A DNA stretch of 64,000 nucleotides from Candidatus Bathyarchaeota archaeon (GTDB lineage: Archaea > Thermoproteota > Bathyarchaeia > 40CM-2-53-6): positions 712,460 through 776,459 of the forward strand of contig CAVTBR010000003.1 of the NCBI GenBank assembly GCA_963733055.1. Reading direction: 5' to 3'. Both the position numbers and the translations under genes were made by a program. Every line of letters starts with the position of its first letter. Position 1 is the first letter of the stretch. Shown here piece by piece: positions 37,340-58,205 of the stretch. The notes beneath the pieces were generated by a model, which worked only from the letters and a program-made list of their open reading frames with translations, made no database searches and was not told the origin of the DNA.

Positions 37340-37948
37340 TTAGTCGATTTTGATTTCTTTGCCCTTTGGTCTAGGTTGGGTTTTGCGTAGGGTGATTTCT
37401 AGGACGCCGTTGTTGTATGAGGCCTTGGTGCTGTCGGGGTCTACGCCGGTCGGTAGTTGAACTTCCTTGTAGTACTTGTGGTTCGGTGAATCCACTCTGA
37501 TCGTTAATGCGTCCTCGTTGATGCTGGTCTTTATGTCGGACTTCTCGACGCCGGGTAGTTCCGCAACTACGCGCACTTGTGCTTGTTCGTTGATGACATC
37601 GACTAAGGGTTCACGGGTTTCTTTTGGTTCCAGGGCTGGTTGCTGCATGCCGAATGCGCCTGGGCGTCGGGATGGTTTCACGTTGCCGAACTCTTGTACG
37701 TTGGGCTTGCCGTCGGGGCCGATAGACATGGAGTAGCCGTAAACGAAGGGGCCGTACTGCTTCACGGTTGAACCGTCAGGTAGCTTTCTCTCAGTCATCA
37801 TGTCCTTCGGCATACCCTTGAGCATGTCCTGGAACATGTTCTCGAACATCTCATCGACGTCGCCGAACCAGCGGTCCATCCAACCGAAAGGAGACTGCCT
37901 GCCCTTTCGTGACCTAAACCATTCGGGAAGGAATTCGTCTGAAGACAT
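37340..37948 (-). CDS. hsp20: Archaeal small heat shock protein Hsp20
   Basis: GPFVYGYSM.IGPDGKP...EFGN, REPLVDV, AELPGVEK, ASYNNGVLEI; SD GAGGTGA upstream. Confidence 0.96.
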   Translation of the reverse strand: MSSDEFLPEWFRSRKGRQSPFGWMDRWFGDVDEMFENMFQDMLKGMPKDMMTERKLPDGSTVKQYGPFVYGYSMSIGPDGKPNVQEFGNVKPSRRPGAFGMQQPALEPKETREPLVDVINEQAQVRVVAELPGVEKSDIKTSINEDALTIRVDSPNHKYYKEVQLPTGVDPDSTKASYNNGVLEITLRKTQPRPKGKEIKID

Positions 37949-37977: not shown

Positions 37978-38025
37978 TGTTACCTTTAGTAACAGTCCGA
38001 TATAAATATTGTTACGTAAGGTAAC
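37978..38025 (-). promoter_or_regulatory. hsp20 promoter: TATA box flanked by two GTTAC-N5-GTAAC palindromes (putative heat-shock repressor operators)
   Basis: TGTTACCTTTAGTAACA at 37978-37994; TTTATA (minus strand) at 38001-38006; GTTACGTAAGGTAAC at 38011-38025. Confidence 0.7.
38012..38019. repeat. 8-bp target-site duplication TTACGTAA, copy 1
   Basis: Identical 8-mer immediately outside element ends at 38012, 40864 and 43658. Confidence 0.85.
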
Positions 38026-38081
38026 GTCAAGTCCTCGGTTGATAGGTTAGTTTCTTGTTGTTGTAAAAAAGCGGTTGATAA

Positions 38082-38651
38082 CTAGGACTTTGACTTAGGT
38101 CGGAGTAGAAGTGCGTCGGTCGTATCTTGCCTAATATCTGTAAGGCCCTTTCTTATCGAGGACTTATACGCATCGGAATATCGAGCATATCGGTTGTTGA
38201 GCGAATCGAAAACTCGAAGGTGCTCATCATCATAGCCAACTACTGTGAACATATGCTTGTTGCCATTAAGTTGGCCCGTGTAAACATCGTGCGATGGAAC
38301 GGAGATTATGTAAGGTAGTCCGTCATCCACACCTTTTTCCAGAGCGATAATTAGGTCTTCGAATGTCTTGAAGTCGGATGCGGGAAAATGTTTAGGCGTT
38401 CGTGACCAAGCTAAGTCTTCATGCGTCGAAAGAGGCGGCTCTGTGTAAGACAAAAGCCCAATGTCTGACTCAGGTTTTCGCATTCGTGCATTACACGCTG
38501 ATATGAAAACTTCAGAAAGCGCATTTTGGTTTATCTTCGAATCAGGTACGTGATAACGCGTAACGGCTTCAACATTCGCAAATGTACACCACCACCAATC
38601 TGCTTGCCGTACGCCGAAAGGGAAATCGTCGAACCTTGGTATGCACTTCAT
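38082..38651 (-). CDS. Cargo: papain-like C39-type cysteine peptidase
   Basis: Q..WWWC (Gln/Cys), HMFTVVGYDD (His), VFDS (Asp); ATG at 38651 overlaps the transposase stop (ATGA). Confidence 0.7.
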   Translation of the reverse strand: MKCIPRFDDFPFGVRQADWWWCTFANVEAVTRYHVPDSKINQNALSEVFISACNARMRKPESDIGLLSYTEPPLSTHEDLAWSRTPKHFPASDFKTFEDLIIALEKGVDDGLPYIISVPSHDVYTGQLNGNKHMFTVVGYDDEHLRVFDSLNNRYARYSDAYKSSIRKGLTDIRQDTTDALLLRPKSKS

Positions 38652-39802
38652 GTAAGCTCTTTCATGTTTCTTGCTTCTTTTGCGTTTTGGATGAGCGTTA
38701 GCCACTTGTTTTCACCGCTTATGGTTATTCCCGCTACTTCTGCCGGAGTTTTGCCGTTCAATGCCGTGTGTGGTCGTATGTAGTTGTGAAATAATTGATA
38801 GCCCCTAAGTATGGGACTGTCGGGCTTTTCGAGGGTACGCATTACACGTTCTCGGTCACGGATTTCCCCGTTCATGCGTTCCATTTTGTTATTGTGAACC
38901 GTTCCATCGAAGCGTATGTCGCGTATGTGTTCGGGACGATTCGCTAGTTTGCTTGTGTAGAACTCGTCGTTGAATGCTTCATGAAAGTTAGGCGCACCGT
39001 CAGTAATGAGGGTTCTGGGGTTCTTGTGTGCGATTGCCTTAGCTTGTTTAAACAGCGGTCGAATGTCAGCCGAATACTTGGTATCGGCTACCTCTTGCGC
39101 TATCCAGAAACGGGTTTGGTCATCCATTAGAGCGTAGAGATATTTCATGTTGCCATGAACTTTCAGAAAGAGTTCATCGGCTCTCCAAGTATCGCTTACC
39201 TGCGGTGTGATTTTGTCTAAGTATTTCTCCATCAGAGCCGTGTATTTCTCAATCCAGTTGTAAACGGTTTGGTGGCTAACCTGAGTGCCCAACAGTCTGA
39301 GTGACCGAGAAGTATTTCTGAGGCTCTCACCGGAGAAATAAAGTTGCATAGCCGTTGTGATAGCTTGCGGGTTGTGCTTCATGCGCTCGAAACCTAGATT
39401 CACGCTAAAGGTTCTATGACAATCCGCACAGAGGAATCGCTGAATGTCGCCGTACTTGTTGTGTCTGCACCCGAACTTCTTCAGGTTTGAGGATTGGCAG
39501 AATAGGCAGGATGTAATCGAAACGGGTTCAATCACGTTTTCTTTGACTTTCTCCCTTATCCTGAGGCTGAACTCTACAGCCCAAATGTGCTTACATCTTA
39601 AAATCTGGTGAAGCTCTGAGGCTCGGTAGTGGAAATCTAAACAATCACAAATCCATGAACCGTTCTCGCGACGAATAACATCATACATTCCATGTCCGTT
39701 CTGAGAAGCTACCTTGTAACTGCGCTCATCCATGCGCTGAATTTGGTTTGGTTTCTCAGCGATTAGTCGGCCTCTTTCTTCACGGGAGAGAACTGTTTGC
39801 AT
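38648..39802 (-). CDS. IS6-family (IS240-type) DDE transposase with N-terminal SWIM finger and Zn ribbon
   Basis: CDC..CKH (SWIM); CxxC..QRFLCxxC; HTH; WRADE, ITDG, HNNKMER, NYIRPH. Confidence 0.92.
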   Translation of the reverse strand: MQTVLSREERGRLIAEKPNQIQRMDERSYKVASQNGHGMYDVIRRENGSWICDCLDFHYRASELHQILRCKHIWAVEFSLRIREKVKENVIEPVSITSCLFCQSSNLKKFGCRHNKYGDIQRFLCADCHRTFSVNLGFERMKHNPQAITTAMQLYFSGESLRNTSRSLRLLGTQVSHQTVYNWIEKYTALMEKYLDKITPQVSDTWRADELFLKVHGNMKYLYALMDDQTRFWIAQEVADTKYSADIRPLFKQAKAIAHKNPRTLITDGAPNFHEAFNDEFYTSKLANRPEHIRDIRFDGTVHNNKMERMNGEIRDRERVMRTLEKPDSPILRGYQLFHNYIRPHTALNGKTPAEVAGITISGENKWLTLIQNAKEARNMKELT

Positions 39803-39811
39803 CGCTTTCAC

Positions 39812-39863
39812 GGCTACGATACTGTAGCCTAAGTTTAATATAAGGCTTACTACGATATCGTAG
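39812..39863. promoter_or_regulatory. Divergent promoter with paired CTAC-N6-GTAG operator-like sites
   Basis: GGCTACGATACTGTAGCC (39812-39829) and CTACGATATCGTAG (39850-39863), 36 bp apart, around the AT-rich core TTTAATATAA. Confidence 0.7.
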
Positions 39864-39874
39864 CTCTGAGAACA

Positions 39875-40057
39875 ATGGTCAGAAGAGAGATACTCGGCAA
39901 ATCCGAGCGTAAAGTACTAGAGGCATACTTCAACGGTAAACGAATGAAAGGATACACAACGCTCTTCACCCGAATACGGCAACTCGGACTAACCGCAATA
40001 ATCGAGGGATGTGAACACGATCTAGCTTTGTTGAGAAAGTTGAAGGGCGTACTCTAG
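39875..40057 (+). CDS. Conserved 60-aa transposon accessory protein (putative DNA-binding regulator)
   Basis: About 34/60 residues identical to the ORF at 42535-42726 (manual alignment); same position relative to the transposase. Confidence 0.85.
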   Translation: MVRREILGKSERKVLEAYFNGKRMKGYTTLFTRIRQLGLTAIIEGCEHDLALLRKLKGVL

Positions 40058-40748
40058 CCTAGAACCTGTGCTTCAACGCTTCCATTAGGTGTAGGCTTAA
40101 GTTCGATATGATGTAACTTGCCGTCAACGCTTGTTCTCAAAGTCAGCCTGAAAGGGGTTAGGTCTAGTCCAGATGCACCGGAAGCAACTCCCAAGAAGAT
40201 TGTATCAACGCTTTCGATTGTAAAGGCTAACAGTACTGTAGTTTGCCCGCCGTTTCTAGGAATTGTCTCTCTAGATACATGATGGATTCTGTCTCCACGG
40301 AAAGCAATTGTATATGGTTGATGTTTGCCCGCTGTTATTTCCAAATCACCTTCAGGGATGTGCGCATAGGTCAGTGGAAGCTCAACTGGGAAGAAATGCT
40401 TACTTGGCGGTGTCGCAGCCGAGGGAACATTAGTCACGGTACAATCCTTCGCGTCTGCCCTCCCGTTGTTTTGCAATTTCAGATACGTGAGGAACGCTTT
40501 CTTTGGGCCAAGGTTACTAACCTTACCCTTCTCATCTAGAAATGTCACATTCTTCGTTTGATATTCCATTGGAGGAAGGGCTTCAAACTTTAGCTTCGGT
40601 TTTAGAAAAAAATGCGATAGACTAGCCAAAATGCTGGTATCCCAAAAAGGATACCAGTCTCTATAATCAAAATCAACTCCCCCCAACTCGCTAAGGGAGG
40701 AATCCCCGCTGTCGTCGTGGTCGCATTTTGTAGGGGAAACATGGACAT
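40054..40748 (-). CDS. Cargo: N-terminally membrane-anchored beta-rich protein (frameshift at T7 run near 40606-40612)
   Basis: ATG 40748 gives MSMFPLQ...ELILIIETGILFGIPAFWLVYRIFF; one extra T joins it to LKPKLKFE...LKLQNNGRADAKDC of the called ORF. Confidence 0.6.
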
Positions 40749-40863
40749 CTTCTGTTCCGATTCCATATTTAACGCCTCTTAAGAAAGAAGCTGATTTCGA
40801 GCCATCAACCGAAATTTTACAACGAGAAGAACTAAGGCTATCAACCGTCATCTTGACGTTACC

Positions 40864-40871: not shown

Positions 40872-40967
40872 GGTAACGTTACCTTAACGGTTGACGGCTC
40901 AAATTCTTGGTGCTGTTACCGTTCGGTTGATTTACCGCCAAGCCTCTCAAGCAGACAGGGCTTACTC

Positions 40968-41336
40968 TTGTATGCTTACGCTATCGGCACTACCATATTG
41001 GGAATCGTGGCAGGTGTATGTGCCGCTTTATTCCAAAAACGCAAAGAAAGCGTAGATGACGATATTGGATACCTAGAAGTTGGACAATGGTCCGCTCAAT
41101 TGTTTACCGTGGAGCATTTCAATGAGCGATTTGCTAACTATCACATCTACATAGACCCTAGTACAATACCAAACACGCCAGAGGCGACAATGACAGCCCC
41201 CTATGCTGCTTGCAGATATTTTCTAAGTAGGTTGAAAGCAATTAGAGACACTAGACGATTCACAGTTACCCTTTCCACCATTATCGCTGCTATTGCGATA
41301 GGCACAGCCGCGATACTATTCGCGTTTGGATTTTGA
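40968..41336 (+). CDS. Cargo: small two-TM membrane protein
   Basis: Hydrophobic N- and C-terminal segments; convergent with the transposase. Confidence 0.65.
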   Translation: MYAYAIGTTILGIVAGVCAALFQKRKESVDDDIGYLEVGQWSAQLFTVEHFNERFANYHIYIDPSTIPNTPEATMTAPYAACRYFLSRLKAIRDTRRFTVTLSTIIAAIAIGTAAILFAFGF

Positions 41337-42458
41337 TGCGTTCTGAATCAGCGTTAGCCACTTATTTTCGCCCTCAACTTTGATTCCTGCAACTTCCGCA
41401 GGTGTGCGACCTTTCAAACCCTCGTGCGGTCGAACAAAGTTGTGATAGATTTGCATACCCGTTAGAATTGGTGTATCAGGAATCTCAAGAGTACGCATGA
41501 CCTTCTCACGGTCCCTGAGTTCTCCGTTCATTCTTTCCATCTTATTGTTGTGGACTTGACCGTCAATGCGGATTTCTCGTATGTGTTCGGTTCCCGTTGG
41601 AGTCCAGAATTCTTTCTTGTACGCTTCATGGAAGTTTGGTGCACCGTCAGTTATCAGTGTCTTAGGTTGTTTACCTGCAATGTGTTTTCCGTGTTGAAAG
41701 AGTGAGCGAACATCAGCCGTGTACTTTGTATCGGCTACTTCTTGGGCTATCCAGAAGCGGGTTTGGTCATCCATGAGGGCATACAGGTATTTCATGTTCC
41801 CTTTCACTTTAAGAAATAGTTCATCCGCTCGCCATGTGTCAGATACGTTCGGTGTGATCTGGTTAGCGTAGTTCTGCATCAATGTCGTGTATTTCTTTAT
41901 CCACATGAAAACCGTCTTGTAACTCACCTGAACCCCAAGCAACCGTAGCGATCTAGCCGTATTCCTAAGCGATTCGCCTGAGAAGTACAACTGCATCGCG
42001 GTCGTTACTCCTTGCGGGCTGTGCTTCATCCGTTCAAATCCAACATTCACGCTGAAGGTGCGATCACAACTCACGCATAGAAAACGTTGAATGTCACCGT
42101 ACTTGTTGTGGCGTATGCCGAACCTTTTCAGAGCCTTATCGGAATGACAGTAAATGCAAGCAGTAATTTCGACAGGTCGAATGATTACGTTCTCCCGTAC
42201 CTTTTCTCGTAGCTGCTCGCGAATTTGACAGGCGATGATATGTTTGCAGCGAACAATATGTCGTTGCTCTAATGCGCGGTAGTGGAAATCTAGGCAGTTA
42301 CATAGCCACGAACCGCTTTCTCTATGGACTACATCATACATTCCATCCCCACGCTGAGAAGCGACTTTGTAGTGACTTTCATCCATCTGCTGGATTTGGC
42401 TTGGATTCTCAGCGATAAGTCGCCCCTTTTCTTCACGGGAGAGAACCGCTTTCTGCAT
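41316..42458 (-). CDS. IS6-family DDE transposase with SWIM finger and Zn ribbon (unit 2)
   Basis: Same architecture and motifs as 38648-39802, clearly diverged in sequence. Confidence 0.92.
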   Translation of the reverse strand: MQKAVLSREEKGRLIAENPSQIQQMDESHYKVASQRGDGMYDVVHRESGSWLCNCLDFHYRALEQRHIVRCKHIIACQIREQLREKVRENVIIRPVEITACIYCHSDKALKRFGIRHNKYGDIQRFLCVSCDRTFSVNVGFERMKHSPQGVTTAMQLYFSGESLRNTARSLRLLGVQVSYKTVFMWIKKYTTLMQNYANQITPNVSDTWRADELFLKVKGNMKYLYALMDDQTRFWIAQEVADTKYTADVRSLFQHGKHIAGKQPKTLITDGAPNFHEAYKKEFWTPTGTEHIREIRIDGQVHNNKMERMNGELRDREKVMRTLEIPDTPILTGMQIYHNFVRPHEGLKGRTPAEVAGIKVEGENKWLTLIQNASKSKRE

Positions 42459-42472
42459 GTCTTTCTACCTAA

Positions 42473-42523
42473 TGCAATATTGCTGCATAAGTAATATATA
42501 ACACTTACTGCAATACTGCTGCA
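42473..42523. promoter_or_regulatory. Divergent promoter with paired TGCA-N7-TGCA operator-like sites
   Basis: TGCAATATTGCTGCA (42473-42487) and TGCAATACTGCTGCA (42509-42523), 36 bp apart, around TAATATATAA. Confidence 0.7.
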
Positions 42524-42534
42524 CGGGTGATAGA

Positions 42535-42726
42535 ATGGTCCGAAAACAGATACTAGGCGATTGGGAACGCAATATCCTAGAATCATATCTGAAAGGCGAG
42601 AAACTAAAAGGCTATACAGCGTTGTTATCTAGAATACGAAGCATGGGATTAAAGGCAATCATTGAAGGGTGCGAGCACGATTTGGTGATACTGAAACGCC
42701 TCGCCAAATCTGAGGCGACAATGTGA
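42535..42726 (+). CDS. Conserved 63-aa transposon accessory protein
   Basis: Paralog of 39875-40057 (shared AIIEGCEHDL, KGYT, RIR). Confidence 0.85.
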   Translation: MVRKQILGDWERNILESYLKGEKLKGYTALLSRIRSMGLKAIIEGCEHDLVILKRLAKSEATM

Positions 42727-43397
42727 GTAAATACATGCTTGGAGTAAGCCGGTTAAGGCTCGCCATTTGCGCGATCGTCATTTTATGTATCGGTGCAAGT
42801 CTATTTATTGAAGGCGGAATGTACCCGAAGGCAACTCTCTATTCGCTTAACTATAGCTACCTAAGCTATGCCTTTCTCGCTCTTGCGTTTGTTTTCATAT
42901 CTCCAACTATCTTGAACGCAGCTAAAGCGTGGAGAGCGATAGTCAACGATCTTGCAACTAAGAGAAAACTGGGCAAAGATGATTGGAATATCGAGGAGAC
43001 GCGTGGAATCTTTGCTCTGGGCATCATAGGGACCATCATAGTGGTGAGAACGGACAAAAACGTAATCGCCATGGATTCTACTGGGTACTTGTTGTTTGCC
43101 ATGAATGTCATGTTGGCCTGTTGGGTAGCCTATTCAATTTGCATGGCAATTGCACTACCTAACGAGTGGATTAGTCAACGAGTAAGAATTTGGAGTTTCC
43201 TAAGTGCTCAACTGTTATTTGTTTTCGGTGTCGTAATAACTGTCGCCGTTGGTTTGACGGGTTTTGTGACATATGTTTTAAGTGATTTCAAGGCAACTCC
43301 TCTTTATCCTTGGATAATCGGAATAACCGTTTGCCTTTCAAGTTTCGGAGTTGCCTTGCTTTTCTTCGAACCGAGAGAAGAATTTCAGACCGCGTAA
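42723..43397 (+). CDS. Cargo: multi-pass (about 6 TM) membrane protein
   Basis: Highly hydrophobic 224-aa ORF, translationally coupled (GTGA) to the accessory ORF. Confidence 0.7.
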   Translation: MSKYMLGVSRLRLAICAIVILCIGASLFIEGGMYPKATLYSLNYSYLSYAFLALAFVFISPTILNAAKAWRAIVNDLATKRKLGKDDWNIEETRGIFALGIIGTIIVVRTDKNVIAMDSTGYLLFAMNVMLACWVAYSICMAIALPNEWISQRVRIWSFLSAQLLFVFGVVITVAVGLTGFVTYVLSDFKATPLYPWIIGITVCLSSFGVALLFFEPREEFQTA

Positions 43398-43517
43398 TGT
43401 TAAGCCGCTTGAGCACGAGAGAATCCCGATGACGACTAAAGGTTGCAGATTATGGTTCACTATGATGTAGACTGTGCCAATCACAAGTAGGAAAAGCGAA
43501 CAAAAGAACGCTCCCAA
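43338..43517 (-). CDS. Possible small hydrophobic cargo ORF (59 aa)
   Basis: TTG-GAFFCSLFLLVIGTVYIIV...LVVIGILSCSS; overlaps the 3' end of the opposite gene by 60 bp. Confidence 0.25.
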   Translation of the reverse strand: MGAFFCSLFLLVIGTVYIIVNHNLQPLVVIGILSCSSGLTLRGLKFFSRFEEKQGNSET

Positions 43518-43657
43518 ATAGAAATCTCGTAACTCCTTCTTGTTCGTTCACTTTTACGCTTCTATTCCTCCTTAGTCTAGACCGATAGAATCCTTCCATC
43601 AACCGGACGGTAACAGTTGGATTCTATCCAGTTTTCAACCGTAGAGGTAACGTTACC

Positions 43658-43665: not shown

Positions 43666-43725
43666 GGTAACGTGAAGTTCACGGTTGATAGGATATGCTG
43701 TGAAAAATCGGTTGATACTCTCTCA

Positions 43726-44199
43726 CTAACCGTGAATACGATGTTTCAGCCAAAATTGAATTGCCACGGTTAATCCAGCGGCTATGAATAATCCTATGAT
43801 GGCTCCAATCTGCCCATCAAGAAGATAGCCACCCACAGGGAATATAATTCCGAGAATGCTGAATGTCGCAGTTCTCCAAGACGAGATTTGTGTCTGACCT
43901 ACGTAAACCGACTTACCAGTAAGGAATGTGTAACCCACCAAGATAATGCAATAGCCAGAAAAGAAAACCACCCAAGACACTACTTCGTAGGACGCACCAC
44001 CAATGAAATGAATACTGGCGGAAACGATTCCCGAAATCAGGAGCGCTGCAAGGTAGATTGGTGAAGTCTTGAACTTAGACTTTGGCGCTATCTTACCCGC
44101 ACGATCGTGTTTAGAGGAAAGCGGGGCTTGGCAGACAGTGCAGTAGCTGTATTGATCGCTGACTTTTGACCCGCATTTTCCGCATTTAACGGTGCGCAA
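43726..44199 (-). CDS. Cargo: zinc-ribbon plus 4-TM membrane protein
   Basis: CGKCG...YCTVC N-terminus followed by four hydrophobic segments. Confidence 0.75.
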   Translation of the reverse strand: MRTVKCGKCGSKVSDQYSYCTVCQAPLSSKHDRAGKIAPKSKFKTSPIYLAALLISGIVSASIHFIGGASYEVVSWVVFFSGYCIILVGYTFLTGKSVYVGQTQISSWRTATFSILGIIFPVGGYLLDGQIGAIIGLFIAAGLTVAIQFWLKHRIHG

Positions 44200-44269
44200 C
44201 GATTTGACTTCGAACTAGTGCTTTGAGCTGCGTTCTGAATTAAGGTTGATTCCTTCCTGACATAGTAGG

Positions 44270-44674
44270 CTAGAATGGATGCTTTGGCCTGTCCTTGATC
44301 GCGTAATATGGCTTTTGAAAGTGTAGAAGGATTGCGACCGCCACAACTAATACGACTAGAATGAGAATCGCTAGATAGTCGAAATGGGTAAGCGTTGCTG
44401 TTGCGTTCGACGAAACGGTGATGGTACGAACTACCGTATATTGACTCTCAGCGGTGATGCATCCTTCATCAAAACCACATGGAACAGTTGCCACCGTCTC
44501 AGGTACAACGTAAGTAAAACTAACAGCTGTGCCTAGAGTTGTTGTCTGTGAAGTCATCGACTGAAGAGAGGATTGAAGAAGCAATTCAAAATGACCGAAT
44601 ACAAGCAAAACAGCAACTACGGCTAGAAGAAAGAGATAGCGACGCAGATGCGACTTCGGCGGCGGTCTCATCAA
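44270..44674 (-). CDS. Cargo: two-TM protein with Thr/Ser-rich extracellular linker
   Basis: N- and C-terminal TMs; start overlaps the stop of the transposase fragment. Confidence 0.65.
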   Translation of the reverse strand: MMRPPPKSHLRRYLFLLAVVAVLLVFGHFELLLQSSLQSMTSQTTTLGTAVSFTYVVPETVATVPCGFDEGCITAESQYTVVRTITVSSNATATLTHFDYLAILILVVLVVAVAILLHFQKPYYAIKDRPKHPF

Positions 44675-44990
44675 ATCCTAGAACCAGTAGCATTCTTAGA
44701 AGCGTTTTGTATTAGAGTTAACCACTTGTTTTCACCGTCAACTGTGATTCCTGCCGCTTCACTTGGAGTGTGACCGTTTAACGCTTCATGTGGACGAATG
44801 TAGTTGTGGAAGATTTGCATACCTGACAGAATCGCTGTATCGGGCTTTTCTAAGGTGCGCATGACCTTCTCTCTTTGGCGGAGCTCGCCGTTCATGCGCT
44901 CCATCTTGTTATTGTGTCGAACATCATCAAACGCAATATCTCCGATAGGTTCGCTTCGTGCTTCTAGCCGAGTTGCGTGGAATTCTTTCC
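44671..44990 (-). pseudogene. 3' fragment of IS6-like transposase
   Basis: KEFHATRLEARSEPIGDIAFDDVRHNNKMERMNGELRQRE...NKWLTLIQNA aligns to the C-termini of the two full copies; similarity lost beyond about 44990. Confidence 0.88.
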
Positions 44991-45240
44991 TTTTCCGGCA
45001 TGGTTCAAAACTGCGTTTCGAAGCTGGAGAAAATCCCGCTTAGATGGATTGGTCAAGAGCGATTCCACTTAGTAGAACGGAACGGCAGTTGGTGGAACAC
45101 TTCGGAGGGTGTTTTTCTCGGACGACCTGATACTTTGACGGAACGATTCAAGGACTTTGAAGGCTTCAATGCGAGGTTTTGGGTTTCAAAGTGAGGTTTT
45201 TGCGATTCAAGATGGCGGCGCCGCGGCGCGTGATGTTGCC

Positions 45241-45570
45241 ATGCCAGATCATACCACCAAGGAGTTCAATGATGAAGTCAAATTGGCTATTGATAATGCG
45301 ATCTACACGCTACTAGGGCAGCAGGTTCTCAGGGCTGTATACGATCACTTGAGAGAGCGTTACGATGTAACGGGAGATGAGCTCCCTTATCGGTTGGACA
45401 CCTTGTTCGAGACGCTTGAAGCCACTTTCGGGCTTAAGGGTGCATTAACCCTTGGCCGAGTGATCGCGAGGTGCGTTTATGCTCGAATGGGACTGAGATT
45501 CATCGAACTACCAAATTATACACTTCAGGATTATTTGGAGCGCGCCAAGCAGCAATTAGCCCTAACGTAG
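45241..45570 (+). CDS. Small helical protein, DUF3227/NitrOD5-like
   Basis: AID..I..LLG..V..A.Y.HL...Y....DELPYRLD.L...LE..FG pattern. Confidence 0.6.
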   Translation: MPDHTTKEFNDEVKLAIDNAIYTLLGQQVLRAVYDHLRERYDVTGDELPYRLDTLFETLEATFGLKGALTLGRVIARCVYARMGLRFIELPNYTLQDYLERAKQQLALT

Positions 45571-45990
45571 TACCCAACCTAGGTTCTCTGGAGGTGACTG
45601 AAGCGCCAACAGATTTTGTGTTGAATCCTTCGGCTGGTAACTAACATCTTCATTTGGTGGTTGCGGCTGCATGAGGTCTTCGGCGAGTATGCGCTTCAAC
45701 TCTTCGACGTGCTCTGTGAAAGTGCGCTCGATCTTAAGGTCTAATGGAACATTCGCTTTAGCGTACAGTTTCTTGACTATCACCCTTCCCAAGGTCTCCC
45801 CTCCAACTCCGAAAGCGCCCTTAAGGGACGCAAACAGGGTGTCCAAGCGGTAGGGCATCTCATCACGAGTGATTCCAAGAAACGCCTGATAATGGTACCA
45901 AAATGCTGCCGTTACTCTGTTTCCCAAGACTTCGGAAATAGCTTCGTCTACAGAATCAATGAGAAGATCATTGAAGTCAGTAAGATGCAT
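45562..45990 (-). CDS. Small helical protein, DUF3227/NitrOD5-like (paralog of neighbour)
   Basis: Shares FND, DE.PYRLDTLF..L...FG..G.TLGRVI...YA with 45241-45570. Confidence 0.65.
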   Translation of the reverse strand: MHLTDFNDLLIDSVDEAISEVLGNRVTAAFWYHYQAFLGITRDEMPYRLDTLFASLKGAFGVGGETLGRVIVKKLYAKANVPLDLKIERTFTEHVEELKRILAEDLMQPQPPNEDVSYQPKDSTQNLLALQSPPENLGWVLR

Positions 45991-46071
45991 TCTTGGCAAG
46001 GAGAAAAGGCAAATAAGATTACTCAAAATCTTGCAGTTAAGACTTGCGTAAACTCAAGCTTCTCTTCTCGG

Positions 46072-46446
46072 TTATTCGCCGAGGTACGTCGATCCCAGCA
46101 TTCGAATGAGGTCTGAAACTGCGCTAACGAACGGAGTCGTTACTTTCGGATCGTAACTCAAGATTACGATGAGTTTCTTGACCCTGAAGAATACGAGGAG
46201 GACCTTGTCGTACCTAATCGTCACCGACTCCAATGCACCGAGTATAACCTGTAGCTTCTCCGCAGCGTCGACGAGAATGGGCGGCATTATTTGAATGAAT
46301 CTGCGGTCATCCTCCTCGGCGGACACACTTTCTACTCCTTCTCGCATTTTCGAGAGGACGACGTGAAATTGGCTGTCTACAATTCCAACGTACCGAAGCT
46401 TGCCGTCCCGTCTAAATGCCTCATTCGCGAATTTCTCGACGTCCAA
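46072..46446 (-). CDS. Roadblock/profilin-fold small protein (DUF6659-like)
   Basis: LRYVGIVD......MREGV.S, LG.LE...IRY.KV....F. Confidence 0.6.
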   Translation of the reverse strand: MDVEKFANEAFRRDGKLRYVGIVDSQFHVVLSKMREGVESVSAEEDDRRFIQIMPPILVDAAEKLQVILGALESVTIRYDKVLLVFFRVKKLIVILSYDPKVTTPFVSAVSDLIRMLGSTYLGE

Positions 46447-46548
46447 GCCTCAAACCGCCTACCATTTGGCTGATGATCTGGGTATTGAAGGTTGGTTATG
46501 CGTCACTTGCAAGGGGTTTGCCATCGAAACGGCTGCTAAGACGGTTGG

Positions 46549-46731
46549 TTAGGCGACAATGCGCCCGCCACACCTGGCGCACACGGGAAGGGAGTTTTGT
46601 GTGGAGGGTTGGCGGAGGTTACCGTCACATGTGCATATCCCAAGCGGACCCCTTCCTTCCTTGGACGAAGCCAAGCCCCCCCTCTTTTCGGCTGGCAGCC
46701 GAGGAGGAATGCTAAACCTTTTTGCTTCCAT
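46549..46731 (-). CDS. Small zinc-ribbon protein (60 aa)
   Basis: SD GAGGAGG before ATG at 46731; CTC...CARCGG. Confidence 0.4.
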   Translation of the reverse strand: MEAKRFSIPPRLPAEKRGGLASSKEGRGPLGICTCDGNLRQPSTQNSLPVCARCGGRIVA

Positions 46732-46891
46732 GCCTCCTCGGCAACTCCAGTGTGACAAAAAGATATGTGGAAATACTCGAAAAACGGATTCAAATAAGCG
46801 GTTAACGTCCAATTTTGCTCAGGTTAAGCAGAAACAACATAAATTAAAGCAATTGTAGCCAAAAAATAAAATGTTATTCATGTATTACTCT

Positions 46892-47614
46892 TCACCCGCT
46901 TGCCTGGTTCATCCGTAACATTATTCCTTGGTCCAGTATCTGAAACGGCATCCATACCTCCGGGTGACTGCCGAGACGATACTTGGTTATCCTGAGCATC
47001 CGTTCCAAACGTTCCCCCGCTTCAATTTTCATCTCCACAATGAGGTCGAAGAGTGAGTATAGTTGAGCAAGTGTTGAAGGGGAATGAATACCCGAGGTTA
47101 AGGATACGACCGCGGACCCATGTTGCCTAACCTTAGCTAAAACGGAGGGAACGAGTCTAAGCGCCGTCTCTTCCCCGATCGTGCTAATCAAAGTTGACAG
47201 CGAATCAAAAATGACAATACTCCACCCGCTACCAAGCTCCTCGTAGAATTTCCGAATAGCAATCTGGACATCTGTAACGTTTAATGGGCAAAGCCTGCTT
47301 CCAAACTGCGTGTCGGTATACTCTTGGTTCCCGTCTTCCAACCAAGAGTACATATCCACCAATCTCAAGTTTGTTCGAATGTATTCCTGAACATCCCACC
47401 CATGCCCCAACATACGTTCCACTATTTGAGCGGACGAACGCTCGGTTGACATGTAGATCACTTTGCGTCCGGCCTTGAGGAGCTCGTACGCATACTGTTT
47501 GCACAACACCGACCTTCCGCTCCCAGGCGGTCCCAAGTAAAGGCCCACAATATGCGGATCGGCCTCTCGGATGCTTAGTAGTTCTCGCATCTCACTAGTC
47601 AAAGGAGGGTTCAT
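46892..47614 (-). CDS. KaiC/RAD55-like ATPase
   Basis: GPPGSGRS Walker A variant, STE, VDMYS, IFDSLS, LRITKYR..H. Confidence 0.85.
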   Translation of the reverse strand: MNPPLTSEMRELLSIREADPHIVGLYLGPPGSGRSVLCKQYAYELLKAGRKVIYMSTERSSAQIVERMLGHGWDVQEYIRTNLRLVDMYSWLEDGNQEYTDTQFGSRLCPLNVTDVQIAIRKFYEELGSGWSIVIFDSLSTLISTIGEETALRLVPSVLAKVRQHGSAVVSLTSGIHSPSTLAQLYSLFDLIVEMKIEAGERLERMLRITKYRLGSHPEVWMPFQILDQGIMLRMNQASG

Positions 47615-51878: not shown

Positions 51879-52625
51879 TTAGTCTGCGTGACCATTGTTC
51901 CAGTTCGTAATAACACCGAGAGCTTCTGTCAGACTTCCGACCCTTGCGTCCGGGTTCACGAAAGACATACCTTCGATCGGTTTGCGAAGTATATGAATCG
52001 AACGCATTCCCATCCTCTTTGAACCCACGACATCCGCTTCCATTGAGTCACCCACAAAAATCGAATCAGATGCCTTCACTCCCAAGGAACTCAAAGCCTG
52101 AGTGAAGATTTCTTGGCGCGGCTTCCTGATCCTCAGCGCAGCAGAACTCAGAATGGTCTTGAAGAATCCGTTTAGGTTACGCCGTTCTAATATCGCGTGC
52201 ACAGCATAGTCGCTCTTTGCGTTTGAGACTATCCCCATGACGTAACCCTGCCCCTCGAGGGCGGCTAGTGTTTCGATTGTATCGGGGTAGACCTGCCAAG
52301 ACTCAATTTCCGGTTTGAAGAACTCAACCATAGCATTCGTTGGCAGTTCCATGCCTTGATGCTCTAATCCGGACTTCGTTAGAGTCTTTGAGATGATTTC
52401 TTCCATCGGAATCTCAATTTTACGTAAGTTCGCTTCGTCGGAGGCGTGGTTGAATTGTTTTGCGAATTTTTTCGCGAATTTCTCTGAATCCAGTTTCAGA
52501 CCTTGCGTGCTAAGATAGTTGTAGAGTTGTTGGAGGTTCGCTTGGAAGATATCCTCCCAGGGTCGGTCTAGGTGTACCAACGTGTCACCGAGGTCGAGAA
52601 AGACCGCCCTGACCAACGCTATCAC
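51879..52625 (-). CDS. HAD-family hydrolase
   Basis: DLGDTL, VSN, RKP, VGDS..AD. Confidence 0.92.
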   Translation of the reverse strand: MIALVRAVFLDLGDTLVHLDRPWEDIFQANLQQLYNYLSTQGLKLDSEKFAKKFAKQFNHASDEANLRKIEIPMEEIISKTLTKSGLEHQGMELPTNAMVEFFKPEIESWQVYPDTIETLAALEGQGYVMGIVSNAKSDYAVHAILERRNLNGFFKTILSSAALRIRKPRQEIFTQALSSLGVKASDSIFVGDSMEADVVGSKRMGMRSIHILRKPIEGMSFVNPDARVGSLTEALGVITNWNNGHAD

Positions 52626-56891: not shown

Positions 56892-58205
56892 TTGCTGAAA
56901 CGCACGCACTACACAAACGAACTCGAGAACGCTACAGGCACGGTCGTTTTAGCGGGATGGGTTCATGACATCAAGGATCTTGCCCGGATAAGGTTCATTT
57001 GGCTGAGAGACAGGGGCGGCGTAGCTCAGGTCACCATCTCGAAATCAAGTGCCCCTCCTGAAGTCATTCAGGTCTCCGAGAAGCTTGGTAAAGAGGATGT
57101 CATCGCCGTTGAAGGCACACCGGTCCAGAAACGAATTGCTAAGGTAGGTTCAGAAATTACCCCAGCGAAAATTGAGTTGATCGTCAAAGCGCTAGCAGCC
57201 GCGCCGCTCGACATGTCGGGAAAAATCGAATCGAACCTCGACGCCCGCCTCGACTGGCGCGTCATCGACCTCAGGAGACCTGAGAACCTCGCAGTATTCC
57301 AAATCCAATCCAAGTTGGTAGAGGGAATGGTGGAATACCTGAAACAGCATGGCTACCTTGGAGTCTTTACTCCATGCCTACTCGGCGGCACTTCGGAAGG
57401 CGGGGCTGAAGTCTTCAAGACCGACTACTTTGGCAAAGAAGCATTCTTGCGCCAGGATCCTCAGTTGCATCGGCAGTTGTGCATCGCGGCCGGCTTCGAT
57501 AAGATCTACGACCTCGGCCCAAACTGGAGGGCGGAATTATCCCACACAACTCAACATCTATGCGAGCATAGGGTCATGGCGGTTGAATTCGGTTTCATGA
57601 ATGACGAGACAGACATGATGAGAGTCGAAGAGGAAATGGCAGTCGCGGCGTTGAAGAAAGTTGAAAGAGACTGTTCCCGCGAACTAGAACTACTAAAAGT
57701 CGAAGCGAAAGTCCCCGCGACACCGTTTCCTGAGATGCGCTACCCTCAGATCTACGAAATCCTCGAAGAGTACGGGAAGAAGATACCTTACGGCAATGAT
57801 ATTGGAAAAGAAGGCGAAAGCCTACTCGCAAAACACGTTCAGGAGAAACATAAGACGCATGCTTTCTTTGTCAACAGGTACCCTTCGAAAGTCAAGCCGT
57901 TTTACGTAATGCGGGTCGATGATGATTCGCAATGGGCGAGGAGCGTCGACCTCGTGTACGGAGGCATGGAACAATCATCGGGAGGACAGCGCGAACACCG
58001 TTACGATAGGCTCATGGCACAGATAGTGGAGCAGAAGATTGACGCTGAAGGGATAAAGTGGTTTACCGAACCCTTCAAGTTTGGCGTCCCACCACACGGC
58101 GGCTTCGCCCTAGGAATCGAGCGATTCACGATGGCATTTCTCGGCAAAGAGAACATTCGGGAAACAACACTCTTCCCGAGATCTCCAGAAAGGCTGATTC
58201 CATGA
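56892..58205 (+). CDS. aspS: Aspartate--tRNA(Asp/Asn) ligase
   Basis: OB-fold GWVH..LRDR, EGGAEVF, QREH, PPHGGF.LG.ER. Confidence 0.95.
   Translation: MLKRTHYTNELENATGTVVLAGWVHDIKDLARIRFIWLRDRGGVAQVTISKSSAPPEVIQVSEKLGKEDVIAVEGTPVQKRIAKVGSEITPAKIELIVKALAAAPLDMSGKIESNLDARLDWRVIDLRRPENLAVFQIQSKLVEGMVEYLKQHGYLGVFTPCLLGGTSEGGAEVFKTDYFGKEAFLRQDPQLHRQLCIAAGFDKIYDLGPNWRAELSHTTQHLCEHRVMAVEFGFMNDETDMMRVEEEMAVAALKKVERDCSRELELLKVEAKVPATPFPEMRYPQIYEILEEYGKKIPYGNDIGKEGESLLAKHVQEKHKTHAFFVNRYPSKVKPFYVMRVDDDSQWARSVDLVYGGMEQSSGGQREHRYDRLMAQIVEQKIDAEGIKWFTEPFKFGVPPHGGFALGIERFTMAFLGKENIRETTLFPRSPERLIP

Follow-up and report, generated by a model that had tools for sequence, protein, structure and literature searches.

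Ty3 inserts at Pol III start sites via TFIIIB and Tf1 inserts at Pol II promoters; IS30 inserts next to its own inverted repeats and Tn7-like elements are found in tandem at their attachment sites. The IS6 family, as described in a review (PMC7986276), is characterized by 8-bp repeats, by tips with GG and by a cTGTt motif, and the same review gives ~800 bp as the size of the elements and a single passenger-carrying member. As to archaeal heat-shock repressors, the site of HSR1 is given as CTAAC-N5-GTTAG in PMC9133787.

The locus described here lies in a 64-kb (64,000 nucleotides) stretch of Bathyarchaeota DNA that was analysed as a whole and is referred to as the window; it comprises hsp20, a gene for a small heat-shock protein, and a tandem array of transposons that reaches into the hsp20 promoter (Table 1). 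The explanation that we consider probable, taken as a whole, is that insertion would follow the geometry of TATA boxes, that elements would stack at the site chosen in this way and that the tip of one clade would have been remodelled so as to rebuild the hsp20 operator.

Table 1. Coordinates, in the window, of the hsp20 promoter and of the transposon array
Feature	Coordinates	Strand	Remarks
hsp20, small heat-shock protein	37340..37948	-	202 aa; Pfam HSP20, E 5e-13
Downstream operator O_down, GTTACCTTTAGTAAC	37979..37993	.	exact GTTAC-N5-GTAAC
Putative TATA box of hsp20, ATTTATAT on the hsp20 strand	38000..38007	-	from sequence alone; conserved in relatives
Upstream operator O_up, GTTACGTAAGGTAAC	38011..38025	.	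exact motif; chimaera
Target duplication, copy 1, TTACGTAA	38012..38019	.	nearest the promoter
Element E1, 2844 bp	38020..40863	-	from repeats, ends and transposase
E1 passenger ORF	38082-38705		Peptidase_C39-like, E 1e-05
E1 transposase	38648-39811		387 aa; Pfam DDE_Tnp_IS240, 52.8 bits (cut-off 27)
E1 ORF without family	40054-40851		
Target duplication, copy 2, TTACGTAA	40864..40871	.	E1/E2 junction
Element E2, 2786 bp	40872..43657	-	
E2 ORFs without family	40968-41336; 42723-43397		
E2 transposase	41316-42458		380 aa; 72% identical to E1 transposase
Target duplication, copy 3, TTACGTAA	43658..43665	.	E2/E3 junction
Element E3	43666..44985	-	truncated on the far side from the promoter, left end intact
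E3 ORFs	43726-44199; 44270-44674		the first with a zinc ribbon

The hsp20 promoter and the putative heat-shock regulon

The segment 37978–38025 is the putative core promoter of hsp20, whose product matches the NCBIfam model of archaeal Hsp20 with 183.8 bits (cut-off 140), and in this segment the TATA box lies between two 15-bp palindromic operators. Read on the hsp20 strand, the order is GTTACCTTACGTAAC, AAT, ATTTATAT, CGGACT, GTTACTAAAGGTAAC, the forward-strand TATAAA at 38001–38006 being read as ATTTATAT from 38007 to 38000 and the four nucleotides CAAT (38011–38008) separating the TATA box from the target duplication. O_down, within the stretch TGTTACCTTTAGTAACA at 37978–37994, lies 6 nt downstream of the TATA box and is found at the same position in the hsp20 promoters of 17 out of 19 relatives; we infer its position with respect to the transcription start, and there it would occupy the place where RNA polymerase sits. 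O_up is composed of host DNA (38011–38019) and of the tip of an element (38020–38025). Exact GTTAC-N5-GTAAC sites number two in the window, the expectation from 100 shuffles being 0.00. A previous sequence-only reading had placed this motif on either side of the hsp20 TATA box, had ascribed the GTAAC that closes the second site (38021–38025) to the transposon terminus GGTAAC (38020–38025) and had noticed near-consensus sites at the internal junctions of the array: its coordinates all proved correct, the terminus does supply the half-site, and the two one-mismatch sites that it named are both present.

The 2.88-Mb genome holds eight exact GTTAC-N5-GTAAC sites, compared with three for a reversed-pattern control, and seven of the eight belong to heat-shock genes: two to hsp20, two to the gene of the AAA ATPase cdc48, one on each side of its TATA box, one each, just after the TATA box, to a thermosome gene and to the gene of an M48 protease (HtpX-like), and one to the grpE–dnaK spacer, 18 nt upstream of dnaK. 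The eighth site (C2:46315) adjoins another element array, and no clear gene was found downstream of this site or of its look-alike in L065. When one mismatch is allowed, the scan of the genome yields noise (63 sites versus 75 for the control) except for a few sites beside TATA boxes; two more thermosome paralogues have sites of this kind. The arrangement operator–TATA–operator, with 30–32 bp between the operator starts, recurs at cdc48 in the same genome and at hsp20 in two element-free genomes of another family, and in a sister genus it precedes a winged-helix gene that is followed by hsp20.

The suggestion that the motif is a heat-shock operator is borne out by these data, since in one and the same genome it stands upstream of all four genes that the sequence-only reading had singled out (hsp20, thermosome, cdc48 and dnaK) and since element-free relatives, belonging to other genera and families, have it at hsp20, likewise as O_up–TATA–O_down. 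GTTAC-N5-GTAAC is, to judge from the genes at which it stands, the putative operator that marks the heat-shock regulon of this Bathyarchaeia lineage; a putative operator and a regulon are in this way defined for an uncultured archaeal lineage that is abundant in soil and peat. Between the operator pair of cdc48 and the start of this gene, which it overlaps, there is a 46-codon ORF without family (C1:383116–383256 of G000, corresponding to L044:2117–2257) that may encode a leader peptide or else a small protein belonging to this regulon.

By analogy with the Phr and HSR1 systems the operator is presumably bound by a dimeric winged-helix repressor. No orthologue of HSR1 or Phr was found in the genome with HTH_20, the Phr model, PDB and the sister-genus neighbour of hsp20 as queries: the best match to the Phr model NF053602 reached 32.7 bits, the cut-off being 320, and sub-cut-off matches to the same model were also given by 12 out of 14 control genomes. 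The best Phr-like candidate (C2:429630–430283; E 3e-19 with PDB 1ULY and 3e-7 with 2P4W) has no operator upstream of its gene, and none of the 19 HTH_20 candidates has an upstream site with fewer than two mismatches. In two sister genera (L188:135–881 in G023 and L189 in G024) hsp20 is the second gene, behind that of a 248-aa protein, and the promoter of the pair has the same two operators. This protein, with a winged helix (HVO_A0261_N-like) at its C-terminus, is a candidate regulator of the heat-shock response, the two genes being arranged like hsr1–hsp20; used as a query, it retrieved no homologue from the window's genome.

The transposon array and its family

The boundaries of E1, E2 and E3 were set by the logic of an 8-bp target duplication, and TTACGTAA is merely the target so duplicated. 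The length of the duplication was proved independently, in the same genome, by a 585-bp copy between CCAGTATG repeats and by a 3.7-kb copy between CATCTGAG repeats, the latter lying itself in a tandem array. The 585-bp copy (C2:505890–506474 of G000) is MITE-like, with GGTAAC tips and without transposase, and is situated amid further ends.

E1 and E2 are bounded by GGTAACGT...ACGTTACC, with two CGGTTGA(T) repeats per end, and the internal junctions read ACGTTACC-TTACGTAA-GGTAACGT. A right (outer) end of E3 was looked for and not found, and of its transposase only the C-terminal part is left, matching residues 283–377. The DNA of the three elements is 68–75% identical over the reported repeats, and their passenger ORFs are unlike one another, most of them matching no family. 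The best NCBIfam match of the E1 transposase is IS6, with 109.8 bits, under the cut-off of 125. In transposases of this family the N-terminal part would bind zinc and be accompanied by an HTH and a DDE domain; a Pfam search with the N-terminal 200 residues returned SWIM at E 0.76, and we take the N-terminus to be possibly SWIM-like from the CxC...CxH pattern seen in the sequences.

TTACGTAA occurs five times in the window, 0.50 copies being expected: those at 38012, 40864 and 43658 are the junctions of the three tandem elements, and those at 52420 and 57902 are inside the ORFs 51879–52625 and 56892–58205. The 8-mer was considered as a target in its own right and discarded; 31 of its 34 copies in the genome are unoccupied, in keeping with the earlier surmise that it may not suffice alone, and the duplications of the family vary widely in sequence.

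Between the array and the TPR/RtcB genes, at 45157–47614, the window holds three ORFs without family and a KaiC-like ATPase gene. All of these are present in G013 and absent in G002, where TPR abuts the hsp20 promoter, and they may be cargo or the remains of older insertions. An inverted repeat of 56 nt, 75% complementary, with its arms (45376–45431 and 45809–45864) 377 nt apart, is found just past E3.

Transposases of this family occur widely in Bathyarchaeia and in Nitrososphaerota, and they are met in some Asgard records. From 82 transposase matches, representing about 75–77 loci, 28 complete copies with an 8-bp duplication were obtained, mostly with GGTTCTG-like tips; the relatives are 2.0–5.0 kb long, their tips begin with GG throughout, and most of them read GGTTCTGT. 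Two contigs with typical elements, L101 and L114, are titled 'bacterium' and 'Saccharibacteria' and are probably mis-binned archaeal contigs.

Ends were called from a profile score of at least 9, a match beginning at model position 3 or before and a GG tip, while ends less than 70 nt from the edge of a locus and duplicates were dropped. The genome contigs gave 110 distinct ends, i.e., 34 end–8 bp–end junctions and 76 host flanks, and a TATA-like hexamer starts 11–15 nt from the tip in 28 of these flanks, compared with 2, 4, 2, 2, 3, 2, 1 and 3 in eight control windows further out; in these counts, as in those that follow, genomes that are related do not make independent samples, and insertions counted separately may in some cases be orthologous. 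Since the set of TATA-like motifs had been picked after seeing examples, only the replication on metagenomes, run with the script unchanged, is a clean test: 76 new loci gave 106 ends (33 junctions and 73 host flanks), and the hexamer is found at 11–15 nt in 20 of the 73 flanks, with peak offsets of 13–14, the control windows yielding 2, 0, 1, 1, 0, 1, 1 and 0.

The genes behind the TATA-adjacent insertions are of unrelated kinds: SufB and TBP were each met twice, along with an SSB-like protein and others. The promoters of sufB (L075, L097) and tbp (L107, L122) are occupied in different genomes, of Nitrososphaerota and of other Bathyarchaeia, and are possibly hot spots comparable to hsp20. Among 36 complete elements, 22 have a TATA-like box on at least one side, five are internal to arrays and seven have none; where a complete element has one junction and one host flank, the TATA box is on the host side in 12 cases out of 14. 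The orientation of the elements shows no bias with respect to the TATA box (13 versus 11), and stacking is seen also at sites with other 8-mers.

The 12 nt upstream of the TATA box are left unchanged by the insertion, so that the core promoter stays whole and an identical target is formed anew; as the latter comes to lie beside the promoter, an array is predicted to grow on its promoter side. Where an hsp20 array has two elements or more, the transposase match is full-length in the copy closest to the promoter and a mere fragment in the most distant one (six cases out of six), the order of decay being not perfectly monotonic in the array of G017.

Element tips, the hsp20 operator and competing explanations

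With a profile of 48 ends, an element end was located at the identical place in 15 of the 18 genomes of the genus that have hsp20, and a probable remnant was recognized by eye in one more (G012). G002 and G003 have no element end at hsp20 and no transposase within 20 kb, and in both the hsp20 promoter is directly adjoined by TPR and RtcB, two genes that are found past the array in the window. Here the TATA box is preceded by GTTACC-TTTAGTAA-A, the native GTTACC occupying the exact place of the element tip in the occupied genomes. G002 and G003 likely represent the empty site, which could itself be a remnant left by a deletion; the outer half-site that, according to the sequence-only reading, should precede any insertion is found there.

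Arrays of two to five elements are present in G000, G011, G017, G014, G004 and G019. Their members are 60–80% identical to one another, and within one array the junction 8-mers are identical or one base apart. A clean outer junction showing the displaced native half-site was found in none of 13 arrays or remnants, the outermost element being always truncated. In the G004 array (L036) one distal junction has TTACGACA, the reverse complement of the array 8-mer TGTCGTAA, which suggests an inversion between elements; junctions of this type can be produced by replicative intramolecular events, a hint of cointegrate movement.

The nine GGTAAC-tipped transposases in a tree of 35 rows form one group (support 85/85), and the tip is a single change in 81% of the bootstrap trees. 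The group is nested in a well-supported clade of Bathyarchaeia; GGTTCTG-like tips are found in the remainder of this clade as in all other parts of the tree, and the GGTAAC tip is therefore derived. The promoter-side tip is GTTACC at 15 out of 15 occupied promoters of hsp20, at three out of seven of htpX and at none out of eight of one thermosome gene. The htpX promoter is occupied in seven genomes out of 13, at the same offset, and the remaining four tips are CAGAACC; the GGTAAC tip there yields GTTAC-N7-GTAAA, by which no canonical operator is recreated. The thermosome promoter is occupied in eight genomes out of 15, and its upstream operator is gone in these eight and kept in five element-free genomes; loss of O_up is thus tolerated at least at this promoter. 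At the thermosome promoter the 8-mers of different species bear no relation to each other, and those at hsp20 end with GTAA in 15 cases out of 15 and vary in the first four positions, as would be expected of a half-site joined to a spacer. Taken together, the tips and the 8-mers at hsp20 speak for an operator that is kept intact, be it through selection or through targeting.

In the sequence-only reading it is the operator that constitutes the target. Worked out as the targeting of pseudo-ends, this would mean that a GGTAAC-type transposase would take the GTTACC half-site, or the tip of a resident element, as an end of its own and insert into the adjacent 8 bp, and stacking would result from the recognition of ends and not from the TATA box. 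We hold this to be unlikely. It would account for the native GTTACC placed directly beside the would-be duplication in the likely empty site of G002 and G003, for the GCTACC, one mismatch away from GTTACC, that directly adjoins the duplication of the 585-bp copy, and for the frequency of end–8 bp–end junctions (34 out of 110 and 33 out of 106 ends); it would also agree with the presence of the operator at eight of the eight TATA-adjacent host flanks of GGTAAC tips versus two of the 40 of other tips, a comparison confounded by lineage, the other tips coming mostly from operator-less lineages. Elements with other tips, however, share both the TATA offset and the stacking in lineages that have no operator, and CAGAACC-tipped elements use the same position at the htpX and thermosome promoters. 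Furthermore, 17 of the 25 host flanks of GGTAAC-tipped ends in both sets have neither TATA box nor operator, and growth on the promoter side only, as suggested by the gradient of decay, fits guidance by the TATA box, whereas recognition of ends would act on both sides. Thus, of the claim that the element mimics and targets a repressor site the first half is supported, the tip being derived and supplying the half-site in all 15 occupied hsp20 promoters, while the second is unnecessary to account for the choice of site, since operator-less lineages of the family also insert at a fixed distance from the TATA boxes of unrelated genes.

It seems very improbable that the situation at hsp20 is a historical accident, i.e., one ancient insertion inherited vertically and diversified in place, with a fortuitous likeness between GGTAAC and the half-site and a rebuilt site devoid of function. 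All the occupied hsp20 promoters do belong to one genus, common descent explains some of the occupancy, and a match of 5–6 bases between tip and half-site is not improbable in itself. Yet G000, G019 and G013, whose Hsp20 proteins are 95% identical, have ends of different subfamilies beside the promoter (CAACCG versus CCAAACG repeats), which argues for repeated insertion, and an accident is also at odds with arrays of up to five elements so diverged from each other, with the invariance of GTAA next to a spacer that varies while the thermosome-promoter 8-mers have drifted apart, and with the absence from hsp20 of any GGTTCTG-type tip, though such elements occupy the htpX and thermosome promoters of the same genomes. 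That the palindromes belong to the transposon system, for instance as transposase-binding sites derived from old copies, and not to a host operator is scarcely credible: the half-site equals the element tip and element remnants lie near several heat-shock promoters, but the motif is present at promoters beside which no element end was found (cdc48, thermosome and dnaK), as well as in families of the order that have no element at the site, and O_down stands on that side of the TATA box which faces the gene and which no element has ever occupied.

In the explanation favoured here, insertion by TATA geometry followed by stacking and tip remodelling, the targeting signal is most likely the geometry common to the whole family rather than the repressor site. 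Three diverged members of what would be a large IS6-related family, each ~2.8 kb long and with passenger ORFs, would have settled upstream of hsp20, every insertion placing the duplicated 8 bp so that they end about 3–7 nt above the TATA box; the box and the adjoining upstream bases would be left intact and the target would be recreated next to the promoter. Newcomers would enter in the space that separates the TATA box from the last element, and the older copies would move outward and decay, with the result that every junction in the array would bear the same 8-mer. At hsp20 the fixed position would fall within O_up and the insertion would displace the outer half-site; in the clade that occupies hsp20 the tip would have changed from GGTTCTG to GGTAACG, whose complement would restore GTTAC at the right spacing each time. 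We infer that the chimaeric operator rebuilt in this manner binds the repressor, that it is kept by selection or by targeting, and that the transposase in some manner senses the TATA region.

A bolder reading, tentative and on the whole rather doubtful, is that a widespread IS6-like archaeal branch reads promoter architecture in order to land and that the tips of one of its clades have become a working half of a repressor site, allowing stress promoters to be colonised again and again with their control left in place. If this is true, a transposon end would mimic a cis-regulatory element. Sensing may then proceed through DNA bent by TBP/TFB or, in the GGTAAC clade, through the repressor–operator complex, and transposition would possibly be favoured when promoters open in heat shock. 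A self-regenerating target would explain tandem arrays of diverged elements, which could in turn record the history of transposition at single promoters, and a tip that is at once the end of a transposon and one half of an operator of the host would make the co-evolution of mobile DNA and regulatory sites directly testable.

Comparison with known systems

No description of the size, targeting or stacking of this transposon family was found in the accessible parts of the literature, and the words TATA, promoter and tandem are absent, by term search, from the accessible text of a survey of archaeal IS elements (PMC13343696). So far as the literature searched goes, this would be the first prokaryotic IS family to choose a position just upstream of archaeal TATA boxes, a strategy known from eukaryotic retroelements.

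With the IS6/IS26 elements (IS26, IS257, IS240) the elements of the window share the 8-bp target duplication and the GG tips; their DDE transposase is of the IS240/IS6 type to judge from Pfam, its NCBIfam IS6 score staying below the cut-off. They differ in their ends, which read GGTAACGT, with a GGTAACG tip and without the internal cTGTt motif; in their size, the family measuring 2–5 kb, and in their passenger ORFs, E1 and E2 having two each beyond the transposase; in the transposase itself, which has ~380 aa and an extra cysteine-rich N-terminal part; and in having two subterminal repeats per end, a fixed TATA offset and the habit of stacking.

Like Ty3 and Tf1, these elements insert close to core promoter elements and at a constant distance from them, which provides a safe site where genes are not broken; here, however, a DNA transposon of a prokaryotic IS family is at work in Archaea, and the likeness is one of insertion position. 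With IS30 and the Tn7-like elements the array has in common the head-to-tail accumulation at one site, with abutted ends and a short spacer, whereas here it is the regenerated 8-bp duplication that forms the spacer, the members are diverged and a neighbouring TATA box is the common denominator.

As to the operator, the likeness to Phr of Pyrococcus furiosus and HSR1 of Archaeoglobus fulgidus would lie in a palindromic site at the promoters of hsp20 and of the AAA+ gene cdc48, positioned to block the transcription machinery, and in the case of HSR1 also in the same 5-N5-5 form. Unlike in these systems, no Phr equivalog and no autoregulated regulator gene were found in this genome, the half-site is a different one, the putative regulon also has thermosomes, htpX and dnaK, and two operators clamp the TATA box.
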